Positions 35,758-50,720 of a DNA stretch of 64,000 nucleotides are shown piece after piece; positions within the stretch are counted from its first letter, which is position 1; the number at the start of each line of letters is the position of its first letter. Both the position numbers and the translations under genes were made by a program. Source of the stretch: Gracilinanus agilis (lineage: Eukaryota); the NCBI RefSeq assembly GCF_016433145.1, contig NC_058130.1, positions 53,508,793 to 53,572,792 of the forward strand. Reading direction: 5' to 3'. A model generated the notes under the pieces. It did no database searches. It was given only the letters and a program-made list of their open reading frames with translations, and was not told the DNA's origin.

Positions 35758-38599
35758 TGCCCAATGACCACTGGCTGCAGCCAGAGCTCCTGGGAGTGGG
35801 AAAGCCAGGGCTCAGTGATTCCTGTTTTCTCTTTCCTAGTTCTAGATCAGCCTCCTTCCCACTCATTCCACCTCATCATCCCTTGAATAATAGGGACTGA
35901 TTTCTCCCTCTAAAAAAACAGGGGCCCAAATTAGAGCTCCTAATATAACACCCCCCCCACTCCTTCCATTAATTCATAATGGTGAGAACACAGTGAAGAG
36001 GCCTGACTGATGACTAGCCAAGTTCCCCAGGGGTGAGAGGGTCCATGATCGCAACACTGATCCCCAGAAGGGGTATGTCCAGGATGTCCCCTCCTCCTCT
36101 TCCTCCTCTCTAAGAAAACAGGTTCCCTGGTCCCTTTGCCTTCGGCAATATCTCAGCCACATTTTTAAATAGCTCCATTTGTACTGTTGCTATGACAACC
36201 AGAGCCACATCTGGAACAGCTGGTACTCCCTCATCCTCCCACTTCCACCTATCATTCCCCTGTCCCAGCCAGCCCACAGCAGATGCCCGGACCCCTGGGT
36301 CTTGTCCCCAGCCCTTGGCCTTGAAGAGCCCCTACCCCTGCTTTATCTTCACTAGCACTCCATCTAGCTCAGCATGGCAGGACACAGGGTTCGAGGGTCC
36401 TGTCAGCTGGCCCTCATCCAGGTCACACAGGGCAGGGCTAGGGTCTTGCACTAAAAACTAAAGAACCACCCCTCCCTATTCCAGTAAGGGGCAAATGATG
36501 TCTAGTTCCACCAGGTTCCTATTTCAAAGTCAGCCTGAGCTCCCACTAATGTACCTCCTGAATAGAAGCATCTTTCTAAAAAAAGATCTAGGGAGACTGG
36601 GAAATGAGCAGTAATTTCAGTTCTCTAGGTGGGGAAACTGAGACTCTGAGTTATATACGAGTCAAGGAAACTCCTTGTTTCCCCAGAAGGTTCAATAACC
36701 AATCTCAGTTCTGCCCCCTGGGCCAGAAAAGGGCTGACCTGAGGGGGAAAAAATAGGCAGAAAAGGGAAAAAAAGGCAGAAGGGTGATACCCCTTGACAA
36801 TCTGAGTTATAGGGAAGTAGCGATATACTGGAAAGAGCTGTGGGCATGGGATTTCTCACTTGTTAAATGAAGGGATGGGACTAAATAATCTCAAGGGTCC
36901 CTTCTCTCTTTTCCATTCTCTCAGTCTATAGAAATCAGGAGATGGTCTTCTAGGAGGGATTCCGCTCTATTTCGCTGTGTGTTTTGGGGTACAAGACTTT
37001 CCCTCACTAAACCCCTGTTTTAAGAAAAGGAAGTTGGATTGTATGATCTTTAAAGATCTTTAAAGAACAGAATTTCACACACCTCTCTGAATAAACCTTT
37101 TGATTCTACAGGGGCCCCCTGTAGACACCCAGAGATCCAGATGTCTTTTCCCAAGGGAAAAGGGGTCAGAGAGAGTAGGACAATAAAAAAAAAAAAACAA
37201 GTGTAAATCGTGGAGCTTCTCTGCCTCTGGTCCTATCCTTAGCCCCTCTAGCCACAGAAAGCATCAGGCAGGGCCCATGGAGCAGACCTGGCCAGAACTG
37301 AGGTTTGGGTAGCAAACCCAAACTGTGCTCTCCACTGCCCAGGGAAGCCCAGATGTTCAAGTATCAGGAACCACAAGGCAGGAACAAAAGGTGAGTCCTT
37401 CCTGGTGGAGGAAGCCTCCCTCACGATCTCCTCCTGCTACCCCTCTGTCTGACCAACTTTTCAACAGCCTCCCCAAAGCCCAGGGAGAGTCCAGTCCTAG
37501 TGGAAGCTCTGGAAATGAGGAGGTCATGGCCCATCCTTTCCTTTGTCATGTCCCCAGAAAGGGAAGCCAGAAAAAGGATGGGTGTGTGAAATTTCGCAAA
37601 GATCAGTGATAGCCAAATTACTGAGCTGCGTGAAAACTCCTAGGACACAGAGATGGCCCTCCACCAGGACACTGGCCACTAGCCTGGCCACATACCCTAA
37701 TACCCCGACACCTGCACACTCAGATGTGTCCCCAAATCTAGACAGACCCCGACACCCAGCAGCGCTGGCCCCACTCCGAGCAGGATGTGCCCCCTTGTAC
37801 TCCAATCCCCATTGTCTCCCTCTTGGACACACCCTACCATTCTTCTATAGGAGGTGAGGGGGCTGGACCAGATGATAGCTCCGCTGGCCCATCTGGGCAT
37901 CATCCCTGATCCTCCCGAACCTCTACCTTTCCTTGCAAACACAGCCTGACACCCATGGAATCAGCCATCCCTTAAGTCTTGCAGCGCACAATGCAAACGC
38001 AGAACAACCTATGTTCATGCAAGATGCTGACTCGGGTCTCGGGAAGGAGAGTAGCTGCCCCAGGCCCAGAGAACAGCGTGCCTCTCCACGGGAGAAGCAA
38101 GCACCTCGCCTGGCCCTGCCAGAGAGCAGATTGGCCCTGTGGGTTTGCAGCCCGGGCAGAAGGAGGTCTGACACACTTATCGCGCCCTCCCCCCCTTCTC
38201 ATTTGCTAAACATATCCCACCCACCCCTTCATCAGGAATTCCCTGATTCCCCGGGGTCTCCTGGGAAAGGCTGAGGAACTATATGTCAGAGCTCCCACCC
38301 TCAGCCCAGAGACACGCCCTACCTCCCCCAACCTCTCCGGAGACTCAGCCCGGGACCTTTGTTTGGGAGGGAAGGCCAGGGGCAGGGCCGTTAGCTGCCC
38401 GGGGGCAAAGTCCCCCACCGGTGGCCCCAGCAGAACAGGTGTATATGCTTGGGGGCCCCTGAAGGAGAGGCGGAAGAAGGGGAGCTGGGGGGAGGGTCGG
38501 AGCCCCTGCAAGGAACCTCCCTCCCCCCCCCCCACCTCATCCCTCAGTGTGGGGCTGAGAGCCTTTCTGCGGTTTAACCCAGGGATGGAGCTGAAGTTG

Positions 38600-39250
38600 G
38601 GGGACGCGAGGAGAGATGAGGGTCAAGATTGCTCCCGGGAGCCCCGGGGGAGGGGCCAGGTGAGGCCAGAGGGCAGGCTCCGGCAGAGCTTGCCCAGGGC
38701 TGGGGGTGCCCAGACAGGTTTCCTCCCGCGTACCTGAGGCTGCCCCGAGGTGGGTGGGGTGGGGTGGCTCTTTGGGTCGCTCGGGCCCCCACCCCCACCG
38801 CCTCCCGAGGCCGCCGCTGGCCCTGGCCCCGATGTCTGCCTCGCAGTGCTCCCGCGCGTCCGCCTGCGCGCTCGCTCCGAGCTCCTCTCGGCCGCCGCCG
38901 CCTCCTTCTCCTCCTCCACGCTCGGGTCCCCTGTGCCCACAATCGTCGGCGGTAGCGGCTTCTCCTCCGCCTCCCTAACCAGCCGGACGCTCCGCGGGTT
39001 TGCTCTGATGTCAACCGGGCGGAGGAGGAGTTTGTGCGGCCGCGGGAGGGGAGAGGAGGGGAGGGAGGGGAGAGGAGGGGAGCTGGGCGGGGGCGGGGCG
39101 CCGAGGAGCCCCTGCAGAGCCGGGAGAGGGGAGCCAGGAGCCGGCACAGCACAGGAGGGATGCGCAGCGAGGGCCGAGGAAAGCCGAGTAGAGGAGCCGC
39201 TGCCTCTCCAAACCGCGCAATGGGCCGCTCTGAGGCTCAGAAAAGAGGGA
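38600..39250 (-). promoter_or_regulatory. CAMK1: CAMK1 CpG-island promoter and non-coding exon 1 (candidate donor after 38734)
   Basis: CpG-dense; CAG|GTACGC on the - strand; CRE-like TGATGTCA at 39006-39013; GC boxes. Confidence 0.6.
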
Positions 39251-39817
39251 AGAGACTTGGCCAAGGTCGCACAGGTGGTAAGTGGCAGAGCGCCCCTTCA
39301 AACTCGAATTCTCTGGCTCCAAGTTCGCCGAGCATATGCCGCCGGCTCTTGCCAGTTATCTTTCCCTACTTATCGGGGTTGCCACGTGATGGCGAGGGTT
39401 TGGATGCCAAGAGCTTCATGGACTAGAGCCAAGCTGGGCAGGGGAAGGTGGAGGCACCGAGTCTCAGGCTTTCCACGGAAAGGACTGAAATGAGATAAAC
39501 CTTGAGTCCCAAAGACGCCAGTTCAAGTCCTGCCTCGGACGCCTACCAGTTGTGTGACAGGTAGCCTCGGCTTGCCTACTTGGCTTCCCACCGGCCAGCC
39601 AATCCGCGGAGACTCTAAGTTCCGCTCTTCCTCACCAAGTGTTGACTCACCACCTAGACTGTGAGATCGATCCCTCCAGGGACCGCCCTAGTCTCGAACT
39701 TCTTCGGGGCTTCCACAGTGTCACGTGCAGGGCAGGCCACCGTAATAGATACATATTTATTGGTACGGAGGATCACAGCTTTCGAATTGGAAGGGGGCAT
39801 AGATCGAATTTGGTTCA

Positions 39818-43949: not shown

Positions 43950-44188
43950 CTGCTGCCCCTTCGGCTCTCTGCGTGGACTGGACCACTTTCCTGCGCTCCA
44001 GTATCCCATCCAGTCGGGGGCAGGTTGGTAGTCCTCCTTCCAGTGTGTTCTCACAGGATTCCCACTCTAGTTTCTGCTGTTATCACCCTGTCTGGAGCAT
44101 CGCACGAGCCTCCTCATTGGTCTTCCTGGTTCATCCCTCCAGCTTCCCGAAGCTGCCAAACTGCTATTCCTAAACCCCAGGTCCGCTT
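43950..44188 (+). mobile_element. L2 fragment, left half of the element interrupted by the ERV
   Basis: cctcattggtcttcctgg...ttcctaaaccccaggtcc continues as tcatcctgtcactcctcggctca...gagtggctcc at 50244+, a typical L2 3' run. Confidence 0.55.
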
Positions 44189-44355
44189 TGTAAGGATTAA
44201 AATTTTGGTATTATAGGTATATATTAAAATATGTTGTCACGTGTGGGTAACTCGTCTCCCCTCCCCACTAAGGGAGGTTAGGATTACATCATTAGCACGC
44301 CTGGGTTGAGTAGATTTTTGACTATTAATGGGCTGGAACTAATTCTATTTACACA
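44189..44355 (-). repeat. ERV 3' LTR, internally deleted (167 bp)
   Basis: 44234-44355 matches 50122-50243 at 116/122 by hand count; 44189-44233 matches 49628-49674 more loosely. Confidence 0.9.
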
Positions 44356-44366
44356 ATCCCCCCTGA
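44356..44366 (-). other. Polypurine tract of the ERV
   Basis: TCAGGGGGGAT immediately upstream of the 3' LTR on the - strand. Confidence 0.8.
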
Positions 44367-45893
44367 TGATCATATTGGGTGCCTAGTCACCCCAAGTGAT
44401 CATGTTACACAACCATCTTCTACCACAAAGGTCCTTCTAACTACAATAGTTAGAGATAAGAGGGAAATGGAAAAGAGAGAAAGCAAAACCAATGTTTTGC
44501 TAAGCGTGTTGACAAGAAACCAATTGGGGGCAGTCCCCAATCGGCATATCATGTACAATTAAAGTAGCTGTTCAAACCCATCAGTCCATTCATTAGTACC
44601 CAAAGTTCGTTCTGGATCACTTGATGCAACAAAACCCCATCAGTTCAATCAATTGCAACCCAAAGTTCATTCTGGATCTCTTGATTAAACGTAGGTTCTT
44701 CAGGCATCTCTCTGCAAGCAGTTCATTCTCTGGATTAAGGAATCAGCAGGTTTCTTTCCCTGAGAATTTTCTCAAACAAAACCAAAAATTAAATCTTGGA
44801 TATAATAAAAATACGATTAATCTTGGATTTTATAAAAATACAATCCCCCCTGACGTGGGTATTTAGAAAGAAATACCCAGATCAGCTCAATATATACAGT
44901 TGAGTCATGGGGTTGTATGAGTCAATTCAAAAGGAAAAAAGAAAGAAAAAATATAAAATCAATAGAAGAAAATTGAAGCTTTTGAAAAAAAAAGGCATTA
45001 AAATCAAAATCAAATATCAAAAGTTATGTACATAAAAATTTTTGAAGAAAACAAAATAAAATTATAACAGGCCCTTGTATTAGGGTCTAATCAATTATAA
45101 TTTCCATCCTACTAGTCTGTAGGATACAATGCAGTAATACTGCACTTACCCATTTGCAGCTAAGACTACAGGAAGTTGCCATTCTATAAGAGAGAAAAAA
45201 GGACCAGATTTAAATGCAAGGAAAGCGTCTGTCATTCCCTTTACTCTCAGGAATATATGGTTGAGCCAGATAATAGCCAACCTGCGGTACCTGACTGGCA
45301 GTGTAGTTCAGAGAGTCCTACATCTTAACATATGTTAAGCGTCGCAGCTTCGATTCTTACACTGAGTTCAAGTCCTCAGTGTTGGCGTGGGAGTACCTCA
45401 ATCCCACCTGTATATGTATGATCTTTAACCTTGTGCTCCTTGGCACTGTGCAGATGTTCTCAGAAATCCCATTGGATTTGTCGGTTGGTCTTCATGACCT
45501 TGTGCTTTCCTTAGCACCATTAATGGCTCATGTGTTCCCTTCTCCTGGAATTAGATAGAAGCATTAATCACAGTCCCATAACATTTAACAATGTATGGCA
45601 AGTTCTTGGAGTCTAAACCTTGTGAGTAAGCAGTAATATTACAGCAATTATATATATATTAAAATTATAGCATTGCAAAAAACAATGAAAAAATTAAGTG
45701 ATTATATGTACTCAAGTACAAGAAATGAGAAAAAAGACAAAAAAAAATATCAATTATTCTATTAAAAGATATTAGGAAATCAATAAGAAATTTAAAAATA
45801 AAATCAGGGAAAGAATCAAGACAAACCAATGATTCCAAATTAACATCCATGAGTCCATGAACTGTTATCTCCAATGCAGGTAACAGGAAACAG

Positions 45894-47510
45894 TCAATCA
45901 GGTTCAATAGAAGATGCCCTCTTTACATGTGAGCAATGAATCCAAGAGTCCTTTTCTCCGATCTTTATAGCTGTTGGGGTGGTTATTAAAATTTCAAACG
46001 GGCCATCCCACGAAGGCTGGGTTGCCCCAGTGCGCTGGAAGTTCTTTATATACACTTTGTCTCCTGGATTCAGGTCGTGAAGTGAAAAGTCTATTGGTCC
46101 TGCTTGTACTGCAGTTCCAGATTCATGGAGTTCACGCAGTCTGTGTTGCAATTCCTGTATATAGGAAGCAATAGAAGTATCTCCTCCTAATAGTGATGTA
46201 TATGCAGGAGAAAAAGGTTTAGCTTGTATAGGAGGATGTCCAAAAAGCATCTCATATGGTGAGATGTGTAGATCTCCCCTAGGTCTGCTTCTAAGATAAA
46301 ATAGAGCTAGAGGGAGAATTTCAGGCCATTTTAGATGTGTCTCAGTATATAATTTGCCAATCATGGTTTTAAGTTCTCTGTTCATCCGTTCAACTTGGCC
46401 TGAGCTCTGGGGGTGATATGGTACATGGAATTTTGGAGTTATCCCCAGGCATGAATATATTTCAGATAAAACTGAATCAGTAAAGTGACTCCCTCTGTCG
46501 GAGTCAATACGTGCAGGCAGACCAAAACGAGGAATAATTTCTTTTAAAAGCACCTTGGCAACAAAGGCTGACGTGGCTGGGGCAGTAGGAAATGCTTCCG
46601 GCCACCTGGTCAGTTGATCCACTATGACCAGACAGAATTTATATTGTCCAGCCTTTGGCATTGTTATGAAATCAATTTGTAGGTGCTCAAAAGGTGTGTA
46701 AGCCAATGGACACCCACCAAAAGCCTTGCCACGAAAGGCGTGTTGGTTATATGCTTGGCAAGTAAGGCAAGCTGCACACACTTTAGAGGCTATAGAGGTT
46801 ATGCCAGGAGCTATCCATACTCTCTTAACAGAGTCCACGATGCCCTGGGTACCAAAATGACCATTTTTATGAATAGATTGGCAAATTTGGCGATAAAAGT
46901 GTCTAGGGAGCAGGGGTTTTCCTTCAGAGGACACCCATACTCCATTTATCTGTTTGGCTTTAAATTTCTGTTTCCATTTTGTTACTTCCTTCTCATCATA
47001 GGAAAGTGATAAATTTAAGTCATCAGTGGTTGTTAATGTTAAAATTAATTCAGGCCCTTCTATTGCTGCTACCTTTGCAGCAATATCTGCCCAATTATTT
47101 CCCTTAGAGACAGGGTCAGTGCCACCTGTATGGGCAGAGCAATGAACTACAGCTAGGGCTTTGGGTAGTTGGAGAGCAGAAAGAACTTCATTAATAATTT
47201 TTGCATTAGCTATAGATTTTCCAGCTGAGCATTTGCTATTCCTGGAATTATTATTATTATTATTATTCCTGTTGTTATTTATATAGTTGGCTTTTGACTG
47301 GGTATTATTTCCGATTACTCTTAAGAAATTCTTACAGTTCATTATTATATGGCCCTTCTTCATAAAGAATTGGCAGATAACGGATTGATAGTTAGATTCT
47401 TGGAGAGGGGCTATTGTCTCTCCTTTATTTTTCATTTTTTCCTTTAGCATTTTAATTTCTGCTTTTAAAGCATCCAACTGAGTCAATGTCTTCCTCATGT
47501 CTTTGTGCAT
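45894..47510 (-). CDS. ERV Gag C-terminus/NC fused in frame to the RNase H end and a complete integrase (538 aa, uninterrupted)
   Basis: Zn-knuckle remnant [14 protein letters not shown]; RNase H AVVHCSAH...GNNWAD; integrase HHCC (HKNGH...CAAC/CLTC), QIDF, IDSDRG, GQVERMN and WDGPF. Confidence 0.88.
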
Positions 47511-47754
47511 GGCCCTTAAAAATAGAAGATGCTACTTTCCTCAATTCCTCAAGACTCATAGATTCTCCAGTTGGGGCAGTTAATTTTAAAACAGTCTTTG
47601 ACTACTTTGCAGGAATTCTCAATGAATTGCCTACTTATATGTCTAATATGCTGTTCCATGGTTAAATCAAGGTCCGGATTATATTTCTCCCACTTCAATC
47701 AGCCTGTCCATAAAATGGGAGGGAGTTTCATTGGTATGTTGTTTTGAATTTTGC
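47511..47754 (-). pseudogene. Disrupted Gag capsid C-terminal domain including the MHR
   Basis: TAG at 47755-47757, then frameshifted ETPSHFMDRLIEVGE (47700-47729) and further frameshifts. Confidence 0.7.
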
Positions 47755-48774
47755 CTAACTGTCAGGTGTATCAGCACAAGCTTTCATGGCTGACAATAAT
47801 GCCTCTCTGCCAATGCACAATTTTTTGTAATCTGGGATAGAATTGTAATCCCAGTTCGGATCCTGGAGGGGCCATTTAGGTCCTCCCTTGCCTTTCTTGT
47901 GATTGGCCCGAGAAATGATTCTTTCTTTCTCACCGACTGTCAGAAACTCATCTAATATATTTTCAATATCCTGCCAACTGGGGTCATAAGTTCGGAATAT
48001 ATTGTCTAATTTTTTTACAAGTAAGAATGGTTCTTTCTCAAAAGTAGGCATATTCTTTTTAAATCCAGCTAAATCATCAGGGCTGAAAGGAGTAAAGTGT
48101 TTTACAGATACCAAGTCTCCTTCAGTATTAAAAGTAGGTACTTCTCGTAAAGGAAATAGTGCTGTGCTATCTTGAATGGCAGGGAGTGTAGGTCCTGCAG
48201 CAATAGCAGTAGCCCTGATTGTCTGTAGGAGGGGCTGAGGGGTGGGTTGGACAGGTTGAGGAGGCGGGAGCAGGACAGGCTGGGGATGGAGTGGTATGGG
48301 TTGGGGAGGGGGCGGGATAGGTTGGGGGAAGGGGACGGGTTGAGGAGGGGGTGTGTCAGGAGCGCTTTCATAGGAGGAATCCTCGAAAGCGGAACTATGG
48401 AGGAATAATTCTCTCTTTTGTTGGAACTTCTTTTTAAACTGTTTCCTCCTTCTTAACTGCTTAGCATGGTTTTTTAGATAAGCCAGCAGTTGTTCTTGGC
48501 CCTCTTCCATATTCTCCACTTTCTTCTCTATCTTACTAAATCTCTGTGAGTTAGTGTCATCCAGCTTCTCTGTTATATTTCCTTTTTCCTTCTCTATCTT
48601 ACTAAATCTCTCTGAGTTAGTGTCATCCAGCTTCTCTGGCAGTTTCTTTTGAGAGAAGTAAAGATAAACTATTCTGCCTACTATGAGTATTATCACACCT
48701 ACATACAGTGCATCAAACAGCCCTTGAAAGGTATTTTCTCGTGTTATTCTTCCGAAAAAAAAACAGCATAACAT
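47755..48774 (-). CDS. ERV Gag N-terminal ORF (339 aa): hydrophobic TM segment, repeats, Pro-rich linker, capsid NTD
   Basis: FPLREVP boundary motif; PFSPDDLAGFK...YDPSWQDIENIL...WPLQDPNWDYN...REALL resembles p30-type capsid. Confidence 0.85.
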   Translation of the reverse strand: MLCCFFFGRITRENTFQGLFDALYVGVIILIVGRIVYLYFSQKKLPEKLDDTNSERFSKIEKEKGNITEKLDDTNSQRFSKIEKKVENMEEGQEQLLAYLKNHAKQLRRRKQFKKKFQQKRELFLHSSAFEDSSYESAPDTPPPQPVPFPQPIPPPPQPIPLHPQPVLLPPPQPVQPTPQPLLQTIRATAIAAGPTLPAIQDSTALFPLREVPTFNTEGDLVSVKHFTPFSPDDLAGFKKNMPTFEKEPFLLVKKLDNIFRTYDPSWQDIENILDEFLTVGEKERIISRANHKKGKGGPKWPLQDPNWDYNSIPDYKKLCIGREALLSAMKACADTPDS

Positions 48775-49599
48775 GCCATAATATAGACTGGATCCAGCGT
48801 CTTAAAGTCTGAAATCTGGTATTTTTTTCATCAGTAATGGTTCGAACCCACCACATTCTTACTCTAGTCAGTAGATGTCTCCAGTGGGTAAGGTCTTCCT
48901 TTTACTAAGGGTTGGGCTAGTTGTATTGTTTGGGTCAAGATTTCCTTTTGTTCCCGCCTGGCTGAGGACAAAGGCTATAGCCTGAGGCCGAGTACTAGAG
49001 ATAAAGCTCTTTGGGGGTAGGCAGGGCTTTTTGCCTGAGGCAAAAAGTTGGGAGTGTCTTTCAAAAGCTAATTTTGGTTCTGGGAGGCTCTATTCGATTG
49101 TAAAAGTCTGAAAAATTTCTTTTCTTTTAAAGTTATGTGCCTTCTACTGTGGGGGAAAAAACGGCTTTTTTTAAAATTCTAGCTGGCCCCACCAGGCTTT
49201 TGCTTTTTCTAAAGATTTTAAAACTAAAAATACGGTTTGAAATAGAACAGAGTTTAAGCCTATTTGTAGCCTAAAAAAATTACTCTCCCTAATTCTACTA
49301 AATAAGTCTAGTGCCTCCTGCTTCTATTTGGCTGCTTTTAAATCTTATTCAGGTGTGCTCCTGGCCTGGCTAGGAGAACTGAGCAGTCCTTCCCAGGTGT
49401 GGCCAAGGCCTCCTACTAGGCTTATTTCTTTCCTTAAGACAAAGAGGCAACCTAGCTAAATTTTCAGGGTCCCCAGGTTTTTTTGATCTCACCAATCTAG
49501 CAGCTTTATATCGACTGAAGCTCCAAGGCGTGCTGTGAGAAGGCTGACTTAAGGATAGGTATAAAGAAGAATTCAAGAAAATTCAGAAAGATTGAGGAA

Positions 49600-49623
49600 G
49601 TTCGAGACCTAAGTGGTCGGCCA
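49600..49623 (-). other. Degenerate primer-binding site (tRNA-Arg-like, uncertain)
   Basis: Minus strand TGGCCGACCACTTAGGTCTCGAAC begins 4 nt after the 5' LTR; tRNA identity guessed from memory. Confidence 0.5.
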
Positions 49624-49627
49624 ACTG

Positions 49628-50243
49628 TGTAAGGAATAAAAATTTAGTTATTATAGCTATATATTAAAAATATGTGGCCGCCAGGAATCAACAATTAGGT
49701 TGATTCCGTAATTAAATCAGACCCAAGTCAGCATCGGGTTGAAGAGTTTATTTACAATCAGGTAGGTAAAAGTAGGGATAAAGAGAAAAAGGAGGTTAGA
49801 AGGCTAAATAAATGAAGCTGTAAGCCACAGGGCCCAACAGCCAGATAGGCAGAGTTTAGAATTGGCCCAGCTAGGCCAAGGAAGCCAGCCTAACTTACCC
49901 ACGTGACAATACAGAGTGTAAGCTGTCTGTGGTCTCAGGAGATGCTTCTTCCTCCAGTTCGAGACGGCAACTGCCCCACAGGAAGTTCACTCACTTACTT
50001 AAAGAGATCGTGTCTTTCATCACTTCCTGTGGTCCACCTCTAATTCAAATGGACAAATGGCAGTTTCTACATTGATTTGGACTGCCCAAAGGGCAGTCCC
50101 TTATTCTTAATTCGTTACTTATTGTCACGTGTGGGTAACTCGTCTCCCCTCCCCACTAAGGGAGGTGGGAGTGACATCATTAGCACGCCTGGGTTGAGTA
50201 GATTTTTGACTATTAATGGGCTGGAGCTAATTCTATTTACACA
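49628..50243 (-). repeat. ERV 5' LTR, full length (616 bp)
   Basis: TG...CA ends; AATAAA on the - strand at 49747-49752; E-box and ETS-type motifs. Confidence 0.9.
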
Positions 50244-50720
50244 GCTTCAGTGACTCATCCTGTCACTCCTCGGCTCAGGACATTTGAGTGGCTCCTTCTT
50301 ATCTGGGCCATCCATGGCAGATTCATCTTTTTGGCCTTTAAAGTCCTTCCCCATCCGGCTCCAGGCCACAACCTCACCCACTCTAAGCCCAAACGGGCCT
50401 CCTCGCTGTGTCTCCCACCCAGGACCCCATCCCTGCTCTCTAGACTGTATCCCGGCAGTTCTCCCCACTTGCAATGAACGCCTCCTAGAAGGGAGCCCTT
50501 CCCTGGTCTCCCAGGAGCCTGCATTTACTTTGTATATGTTTAGTATCTGCTAACGGTCTCTCTTGGCCGTCTCTCTCCCCACACAGTAGGCAAGTTCCTC
50601 GAGCCCATGGGTGGTCTCCGTTTTGCCTTTCTATCCCGTGTCCTACACTGACTCACTCCTATGTGCCAGGCACTGTGCTAAGTGCAGAGGATGCAAAGAG
50701 AGCCAAAAGACAGTCCTTGC
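50244..50720 (+). mobile_element. L2 fragment, right half of the element interrupted by the ERV
   Basis: L2-like 3' sequence continuing from 44188; approximate end. Confidence 0.5.

Follow-up and report, generated by a model that had tools for sequence, protein, structure and literature searches.

How an endogenous retrovirus (ERV) with neither a myristoylated matrix nor an env gene could bring its Gag to a membrane is the question raised by an element in the window, the stretch of 64,000 nucleotides of Gracilinanus agilis DNA analysed here. An earlier note on this DNA had proposed that its Gag begins with a transmembrane (TM) anchor instead of a matrix and assembles on intracellular membranes. 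Three points have to be settled in turn: whether the hydrophobic segment belongs to the translated Gag, whether it stands in for matrix beyond this one copy, and on which membrane such a Gag would assemble.

Organization of the element in the window

The element is bounded by two LTRs and a target-site duplication (Table 1), and its primer-binding site is presumably that for tRNA-Arg. The window copy is defective. A 2.4-kb deletion has removed the end of gag, the protease, the reverse transcriptase (RT) and most of RNase H, and its junction (47233/47229) is spanned by 10 other loci at 94-99% identity. The stop at the end of the capsid (47755-47757) is common to five of the nine examined loci that share the junction (L034-L037 and L041), and the capsid is ~80% identical to the young family, as against 90-97% elsewhere in the element. 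Since junction and stop recur at other loci and the capsid diverges from its flanks, the window copy is best read as a broken recombinant, a non-autonomous form spread in trans, whose capsid derives from a different subfamily than the flanks. A 66-nt tandem duplication (48502-48633) lies in the stalk region, and a protein search with the window fragment gave no match among 1517 candidates.

Table 1. Features of the element, in positions of the window
Feature	Position	Strand	Basis or remark
LTR element, whole	50243 to 44189	-	
Target-site duplication, 5′ copy	50244..50247	-	4 bp
5′ LTR	49626..50243	-	repeat pair; 94-97% to both LTRs of full-length copies
Primer-binding site	49606..49623	-	position; related site in L057
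Leader without any ATG	48857..49605	-	0 ATG
Start codon (48856) and amphipathic, partly hydrophobic N-terminal helix	48768..48856	-	out of frame with TM in window copy
T-run where the frame of the window copy breaks	48752..48767	-	6/29 copies frameshifted there
Transmembrane helix	48655..48711	-	Kyte-Doolittle 2.19 in window copy, 2.83 in open copies
Lys-Lys, capsid side of TM	48643..48648	-	translation; clade-wide charge bias
Probable coiled-coil stalk (long helix) ending in a basic patch	48410..48640	-	22-residue tandem repeat
Pro-rich disordered linker without PPxY or P(T/S)AP	48157..48400	-	translation; coil in relative's model
FPLREVP and p30-type capsid, premature stop at end	47755..48156	-	Gag_p30 E 2e-10
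Capsid C-terminal part and zinc-knuckle region	47234..47754	-	broken by stops and frameshifts (three-frame translation)
Junction of 2.4-kb deletion	47229..47233	-	alignment to full-length copies
RNase H tail and complete integrase	45894..47228	-	rve, Integrase_H2C2, MLVIN_C; 96-98% to full-length copies
AT-rich 1.5-kb spacer at the position of env	44366..45893	-	35% GC; 25-38 stops per frame
Polypurine tract	44356..44365	-	sequence adjoins 3′ LTR
3′ LTR with internal deletion	44189..44355	-	95% to 5′ LTR over 122 nt, then terminal 51-nt piece
Target-site duplication, 3′ copy (4 bp)	44185..44188	-	identical 4 bases flank both element ends

Several natural copies are full-length, with an LTR, a gag of ~615 residues, a stop, a pol of 1195 residues, an AT-rich spacer of 1.5 kb and a second LTR, and pol is stop-free in 37 of the best 38 genome matches. 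In these autonomous members, with their open pol, Gag and the read-through Gag-Pol share one TM anchor. Since LTR pairs are up to 99% identical but reach only 86-88% in older branches, the activity of the clade spans a long time and may be recent. Apart from these features, positions 44356-44410 look conserved across distant subfamilies of the clade, with a possible stem-loop; the folding of this hairpin before the polypurine tract is not exceptional (z -1.39), and Rfam gave no match in the spacer or the pre-polypurine region. About 5 kb from the element, positions 37900-39500 of the window are GC-rich and CpG-island-like with long open frames, and are probably a host promoter or first exon.

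Start codon, TM segment and stalk of Gag

The best 19-residue window of the gag frame coincides exactly with 48711-48655; topology was read from hydropathy and flank charge. The segment is followed by SQKK, the tandem repeat, the basic patch, the Pro-rich linker, FPLREVP (48156) and Gag_p30, so that the helix, the Lys-Lys pair, the repeated coil, the linker and the p30-like capsid described in the earlier note all lie where it had put them. Its Gag interval, 47755..48779, holds these features and misses the start codon, which is found outside it at 48856 and in another frame. Start codons were compared in 29 copies, namely the window and 28 loci, some of them near-identical, drawn from a nucleotide search of the same genome (197 candidates, 40 scored). 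The ATG equivalent to 48856 is present in all 29 and shares one frame with TM and Gag in 20; six of the others, the window included, are frameshifted at the T-run, and three have a stop. The leader of the window has no ATG against 3.85 expected, a value reached by 10 of 1000 dinucleotide shuffles, and no upstream ATG occurs in 15 of 18 leaders, which are related copies and not independent. Given a conserved ATG in frame with TM and Gag behind an ATG-free leader, the TM segment is read as part of the translated Gag, ~48 residues in and behind an amphipathic helix (hydrophobic moment 1.1-1.5), and the reservation in the earlier note that it might lie outside is not borne out by the natural copies.

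Chance is a poor explanation of the segment, because none of 37 Met-Gly matrix-type Gags carries a TM-grade segment in the first 150 residues. The TM of the window copy is three residues shorter than in most young copies, a short form shared with L042 and an older subfamily. The architecture of the family is an amphipathic helix, TM, basic residues, a coiled coil, the Pro-rich linker and capsid. The stalk corresponds to helix 83-159 in a structure model of a relative (a single-sequence model with pTM 0.29), and heptads are strong in the Monodelphis domestica Gag P0156, where 35 of 37 hydrophobic residues fall at a/d, but weak in the family of the window. A search of the ESM Atlas with residues 1-165 gave no usable match, and a fold search of the N-terminal model (pTM 0.29) against viral structures returned none with E up to 0.001. 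Stalk length varies widely through tandem repeat expansion, of which the 22-residue repeat in the window is another case, among the Gags compared (P0002, P0154-P0161 and P0164), from almost none in P0164 to ~140 residues in P0156. Two candidates were rejected: L037 as an independent subfamily with two TMs, which proved to have drifted within a subfamily homologous to that of the window, and P0158 as a Met-Gly Gag within the clade, whose start is an internal stalk Met.

Absence of matrix and env

Since Pfam Gag_MA misses the outgroups too and is not diagnostic here, a matrix profile was built from 20 matrix-type N-termini. All 16 matrix Gags withheld from it were recovered (E up to 7.5e-6), as against none of 11 clade proteins and none of 96 genomic frames (60 + 36), which together with the missing Met-Gly start bears out the earlier note on the absence of a myristoylated matrix. 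The same note had pointed to the lack of PPxY and PT/SAP motifs. This is true of the linker in the window but is weak evidence, because the nearest matrix-type outgroups lack a motif too and one clade member has PSAP; although a late-domain motif occurs in 23 of 37 matrix-type Gags and in 1 of 13 clade Gags, its loss was rejected as an argument.

The claim that env is missing between integrase and the polypurine tract also held. The window has no env-length frame there, and across seven copies no reading frame of the spacer is conserved. Post-integrase frames, with X at stops, gave no Pfam match in 30 cases (21 frames from 7 loci and 9 from 3), whereas an env control was found at E 1.5e-152, and a tblastn env query matched none of 39 clade loci (27 + 12), many of which are truncated. 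The length of the spacer could fit a fully decayed env, of a kind that both Pfam and tblastn could miss. A small hydrophobic post-integrase frame in the window was considered as a fusogen-like gene and rejected, being absent from six other copies. The genome does contain env-bearing ERVs, and the four inspected among 78 scored env matches are beta-type and unrelated to the clade. Young beta-type ERVs with an open gamma-type env are numerous in this genome (L063-L066; TLV_coat ~500 bits; 1621 candidates), and five identical env matches stand at 5.8-kb spacing on C1 near 265.58-265.61 Mb. No full-length relative with a myristoylated matrix or env, which would have spoken against the proposal, occurs among those sampled. 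Matrix loss, env loss and the anchor are each well supported, and it is very probable that the family as a whole has a TM-bearing Gag and lacks both matrix and env.

Extent and origin of the clade

Relatives in Monodelphis have an RT 89% identical to that of the family, and TM-type N-termini are found in ten Monodelphis Gags (P0002, P0007, P0009, P0013, P0022, P0154-P0157 and P0164). The architecture from amphipathic helix to capsid recurs across the clade in very divergent N-terminal sequences, and the Monodelphis TMs look unrelated to that of the window. Among old copies, 10 of the 20 fetched have a homologous hydrophobic segment in the capsid frame, judged by eye; the other ten are truncated, interrupted or frameshifted. 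In a second deep branch, whose pol is ~52% identical, 11 of 12 copies carry hydrophobic segments within their first 110 residues; by eye these are weaker, and there may be as many as three. Two copies of this branch, L081 and L082, start with Met-Gly yet have no matrix. Between gag stop and protease the branch also has an open stretch of ~400 additional codons (L084 5366-6889 on the minus strand, L085, and L087 3112-4401 on the plus strand), where Pfam gave only a sub-threshold DUF5376.

In the RT tree both opossum branches are united at 100/99 and lie among class I elements of reptiles, birds and fish, outside the PERV clade; P0194, another Monodelphis pol, falls outside the clade. The nearest RT relatives, at 51-56%, are class I ERVs of sauropsids (turtle, lizard and pigeon). 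The capsid tree joins 37 opossum rows with an SH-aLRT of 99, adjoined at 88 by Met-Gly Gags of turtle and echidna; it is a quick version restricted to proteins with at least 140 aligned residues and a Met-Gly or hydrophobic start, plus five others retained by name. No named protein from outside the opossums falls within the clade. Class I placement is indicated by the trees, in which the RT goes with gamma/epsilon-type retroviruses, and by the best solved relatives, which are p80 RT/RNase H chains (E 1e-161, as against 4.6e-20 or weaker for class II and lentiviral chains). A p30-type capsid, an MLV-type integrase C-terminus and a gag and pol that share a frame but are separated by a stop agree with it. 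The gamma-like marsupial lineage of the earlier note thus stands as a marsupial class I lineage and not as a gammaretrovirus proper, since its RT lies outside the MLV/PERV clade and it has neither a Met-Gly matrix nor env. Nor does the RT place it in class II, where the IAP family belongs; the beta-type loci L065 and L066 are a distant outgroup in the RT tree. The sauropsid ERVs and the echidna Gag, which are the nearest relatives by RT and capsid and have the same gag-stop-pol layout, differ in having a Met-Gly start with a matrix domain, and the pigeon model carries an env domain, unlike the clade. Because the outgroups on both trees bear matrix, its replacement in the opossum lineage is the simplest reading of the sequences. 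These data suggest that the clade is a large opossum-lineage group of class I ERVs turned intracellular retrotransposon.

Topology and constraint

On the capsid side of the last hydrophobic segment Lys and Arg are in excess in all 18 rows compared, with L037 kept as one of them. By this proxy of flanking charge the capsid would be cytosolic, as the earlier note had predicted from the positive-inside rule; the bias blurs in the family of the window when acidic residues are counted (net charge 0 vs -1 in L027). The simplest members, of the P0156 type, have an acidic leader of 23 residues, one TM and basic residues, an N-terminus consistent with an N-out, C-in anchor. In some older branches a further segment lies upstream, with an N-x-T sequon between the two segments, which would fit a signal peptide or a hairpin and leave the capsid in the cytosol.

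A different topology is that of glyco-Gag of MLV and FeLV, an extra product of an env-bearing virus. If the clade were arranged likewise, the TM form would be an accessory protein with a lumenal capsid, and the structural Gag would come from a downstream Met or a spliced RNA. Class I elements with a TM before Gag do exist, such as P0036 and P0065, which we take to be of the glyco-Gag type and in which, as in the clade, a TM stands upstream of a p30-type capsid in the Gag frame; internal Mets, some then followed by Gly, also occur in the stalk. These controls keep a matrix behind the TM, whereas the clade has none, and the charge bias is reversed in P0065. The internal Met-Gly is not kept between copies, and the ATG of the TM form is the first past the primer-binding site. 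A glyco-Gag arrangement is accordingly improbable.

Within the N-terminus, constraint is strongest on the TM (pN/pS 0.29, or 0.47 by distinct variants, with the small counts of 5 synonymous and 6 non-synonymous). Residues 1-35 (48768-48856 in the window, with the homologous leaders) change fastest, with non-synonymous changes exceeding synonymous ones; the coil also gives a ratio above 1. Such change, and N-termini that are poorly alignable between branches, might mean that the hydrophobic N-terminus is a relaxed and drifting remnant, produced partly by T-rich slippage, of a Gag that assembles in the cytosol, as that of MusD does. In gamma ERVs of cat and bat that have no env, matrix evolution is relaxed, according to the accessible part of their description (PMC4643047), and L037 gained its extra hydrophobicity by drift from its subfamily. 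What drift would not readily explain is that a TM-grade segment with the same charge bias is kept across branches whose capsids are ~40% and pols ~52% identical, nor that charged residues are nearly excluded from it (2 in 414 positions over 18 copies), and we regard this explanation as unlikely.

Site of assembly

With an integral, capsid-in topology, assembly on the membrane of the endoplasmic reticulum (ER) or the early secretory pathway is mildly favoured, by analogy with IAP. In the scheme that we propose, the signal recognition particle (SRP) would recognise the hydrophobic segment during translation, and Gag would enter the ER membrane as a single-pass protein (in some branches as a hairpin), its capsid facing the cytosol and its N-terminus outside. 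The stalk would space and oligomerise Gag, the capsid lattice would form on the ER or another early secretory membrane, and a protease cut near FPLREVP would release the core, so that reverse transcription and integration could follow within that cell. The anchor would thereby prevent loss of an env-less particle at the cell surface, the role of the IAP signal sequence. According to the portions available, the loss of env in IAP went with the gain of an ER signal read in frame with Gag (bioRxiv 10.1101/2022.06.22.497016), and SRP brings IAP Gag to the ER membrane without translocation (PMC3945221, citing Fehrmann 2003).

The same anchor and topology would also suit a Gag that travels through the secretory pathway to the plasma membrane, endosomes or the nuclear envelope, the TM merely replacing myristate as a tether. 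No ER-retention signal is evident in Gag, the TM of young copies, at 23 residues, presumably fits the plasma membrane as well, and a basic patch follows the stalk in the family of the window; that patch is absent from the Monodelphis families. Zebrafish Bik-1 Gag reaches the plasma membrane via an N-terminal coiled coil, in the accessible portion of its description (PMC12067270). Against this route stands the amplification of an env-less clade to thousands of candidates. An env-less particle released at the cell surface cannot re-enter, and this alternative is therefore rather doubtful, if the strongest of the three weighed here.

Going further, it is a tentative suggestion, which we would put a little short of probable, that a matrix-less integral membrane Gag assembles on the cytosolic face of the ER, perhaps without scission so that the core stays within reach of the cytosol; that this gave a route to a main ERV expansion of opossum genomes, independent of and more radical than that of IAP; and that the lumenal leader evolves fast under host pressure. 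The signal-peptide region of IAP overlaps a TRIM28-repressed sequence and diverges in escapees, in the part of that study consulted (bioRxiv 10.1101/2022.06.22.497016).

Relation to known elements

Mouse IAP (IAPEz) is the closest parallel: as presented in the sections at hand, env was lost, a hydrophobic N-terminal Gag sequence was gained and a large expansion followed (bioRxiv 10.1101/2022.06.22.497016; PMC3945221), and the clade shares the first two traits as well as the expansion. IAP is class II and the opossum clade class I, and their origins are therefore independent. FcERV-gamma6 and MLERV1_3 are class I elements that lost env, retrotranspose and have a fast-evolving matrix; they differ in keeping a recognisable matrix, and no TM is reported in the accessible text (PMC4643047). 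The Gags of zebrafish Bik-1 and Bik-2 have an N-terminal coiled coil before the capsid and associate with membranes, but belong to a non-autonomous lokiretrovirus, and neither "transmembrane" nor "signal peptide" is mentioned in the available text (PMC12067270). MEBrv 3 of dasyurid marsupials is an env-less marsupial ERV amplified by retrotransposition, with a beta-like RT instead, and the portion of its main text at hand makes no statement on TM or myristoylation (PMC11334065).

The clade is thus a variant of the known theme of env-less retrotransposons with retargeted Gag, its Gag architecture being apparently new: no description of a class I or opossum Gag with a TM in place of matrix was found in the searchable full-text literature, whose coverage excludes most subscription papers, which agrees with the suggestion of an undescribed system in the earlier note. 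Catalogues of opossum ERVs probably include the family already, and its lack of env may be known too. Mouse class II elements supply most of the grounds for the rule that an env-less ERV has to retarget its Gag in order to spread within cells. As an independent class I case that combines young copies and many divergent anchors with an outgroup that has matrix, the clade allows a direct comparison of env loss, Gag retargeting and copy number. It bears also on how a core is returned to the nucleus from a membrane-bound particle and on what makes opossum genomes so rich in ERVs. These make up ~10% of the Monodelphis genome in the accessible part of a published account (PMC13709493), and in the Gracilinanus genome a capsid query returned 9355 candidates.
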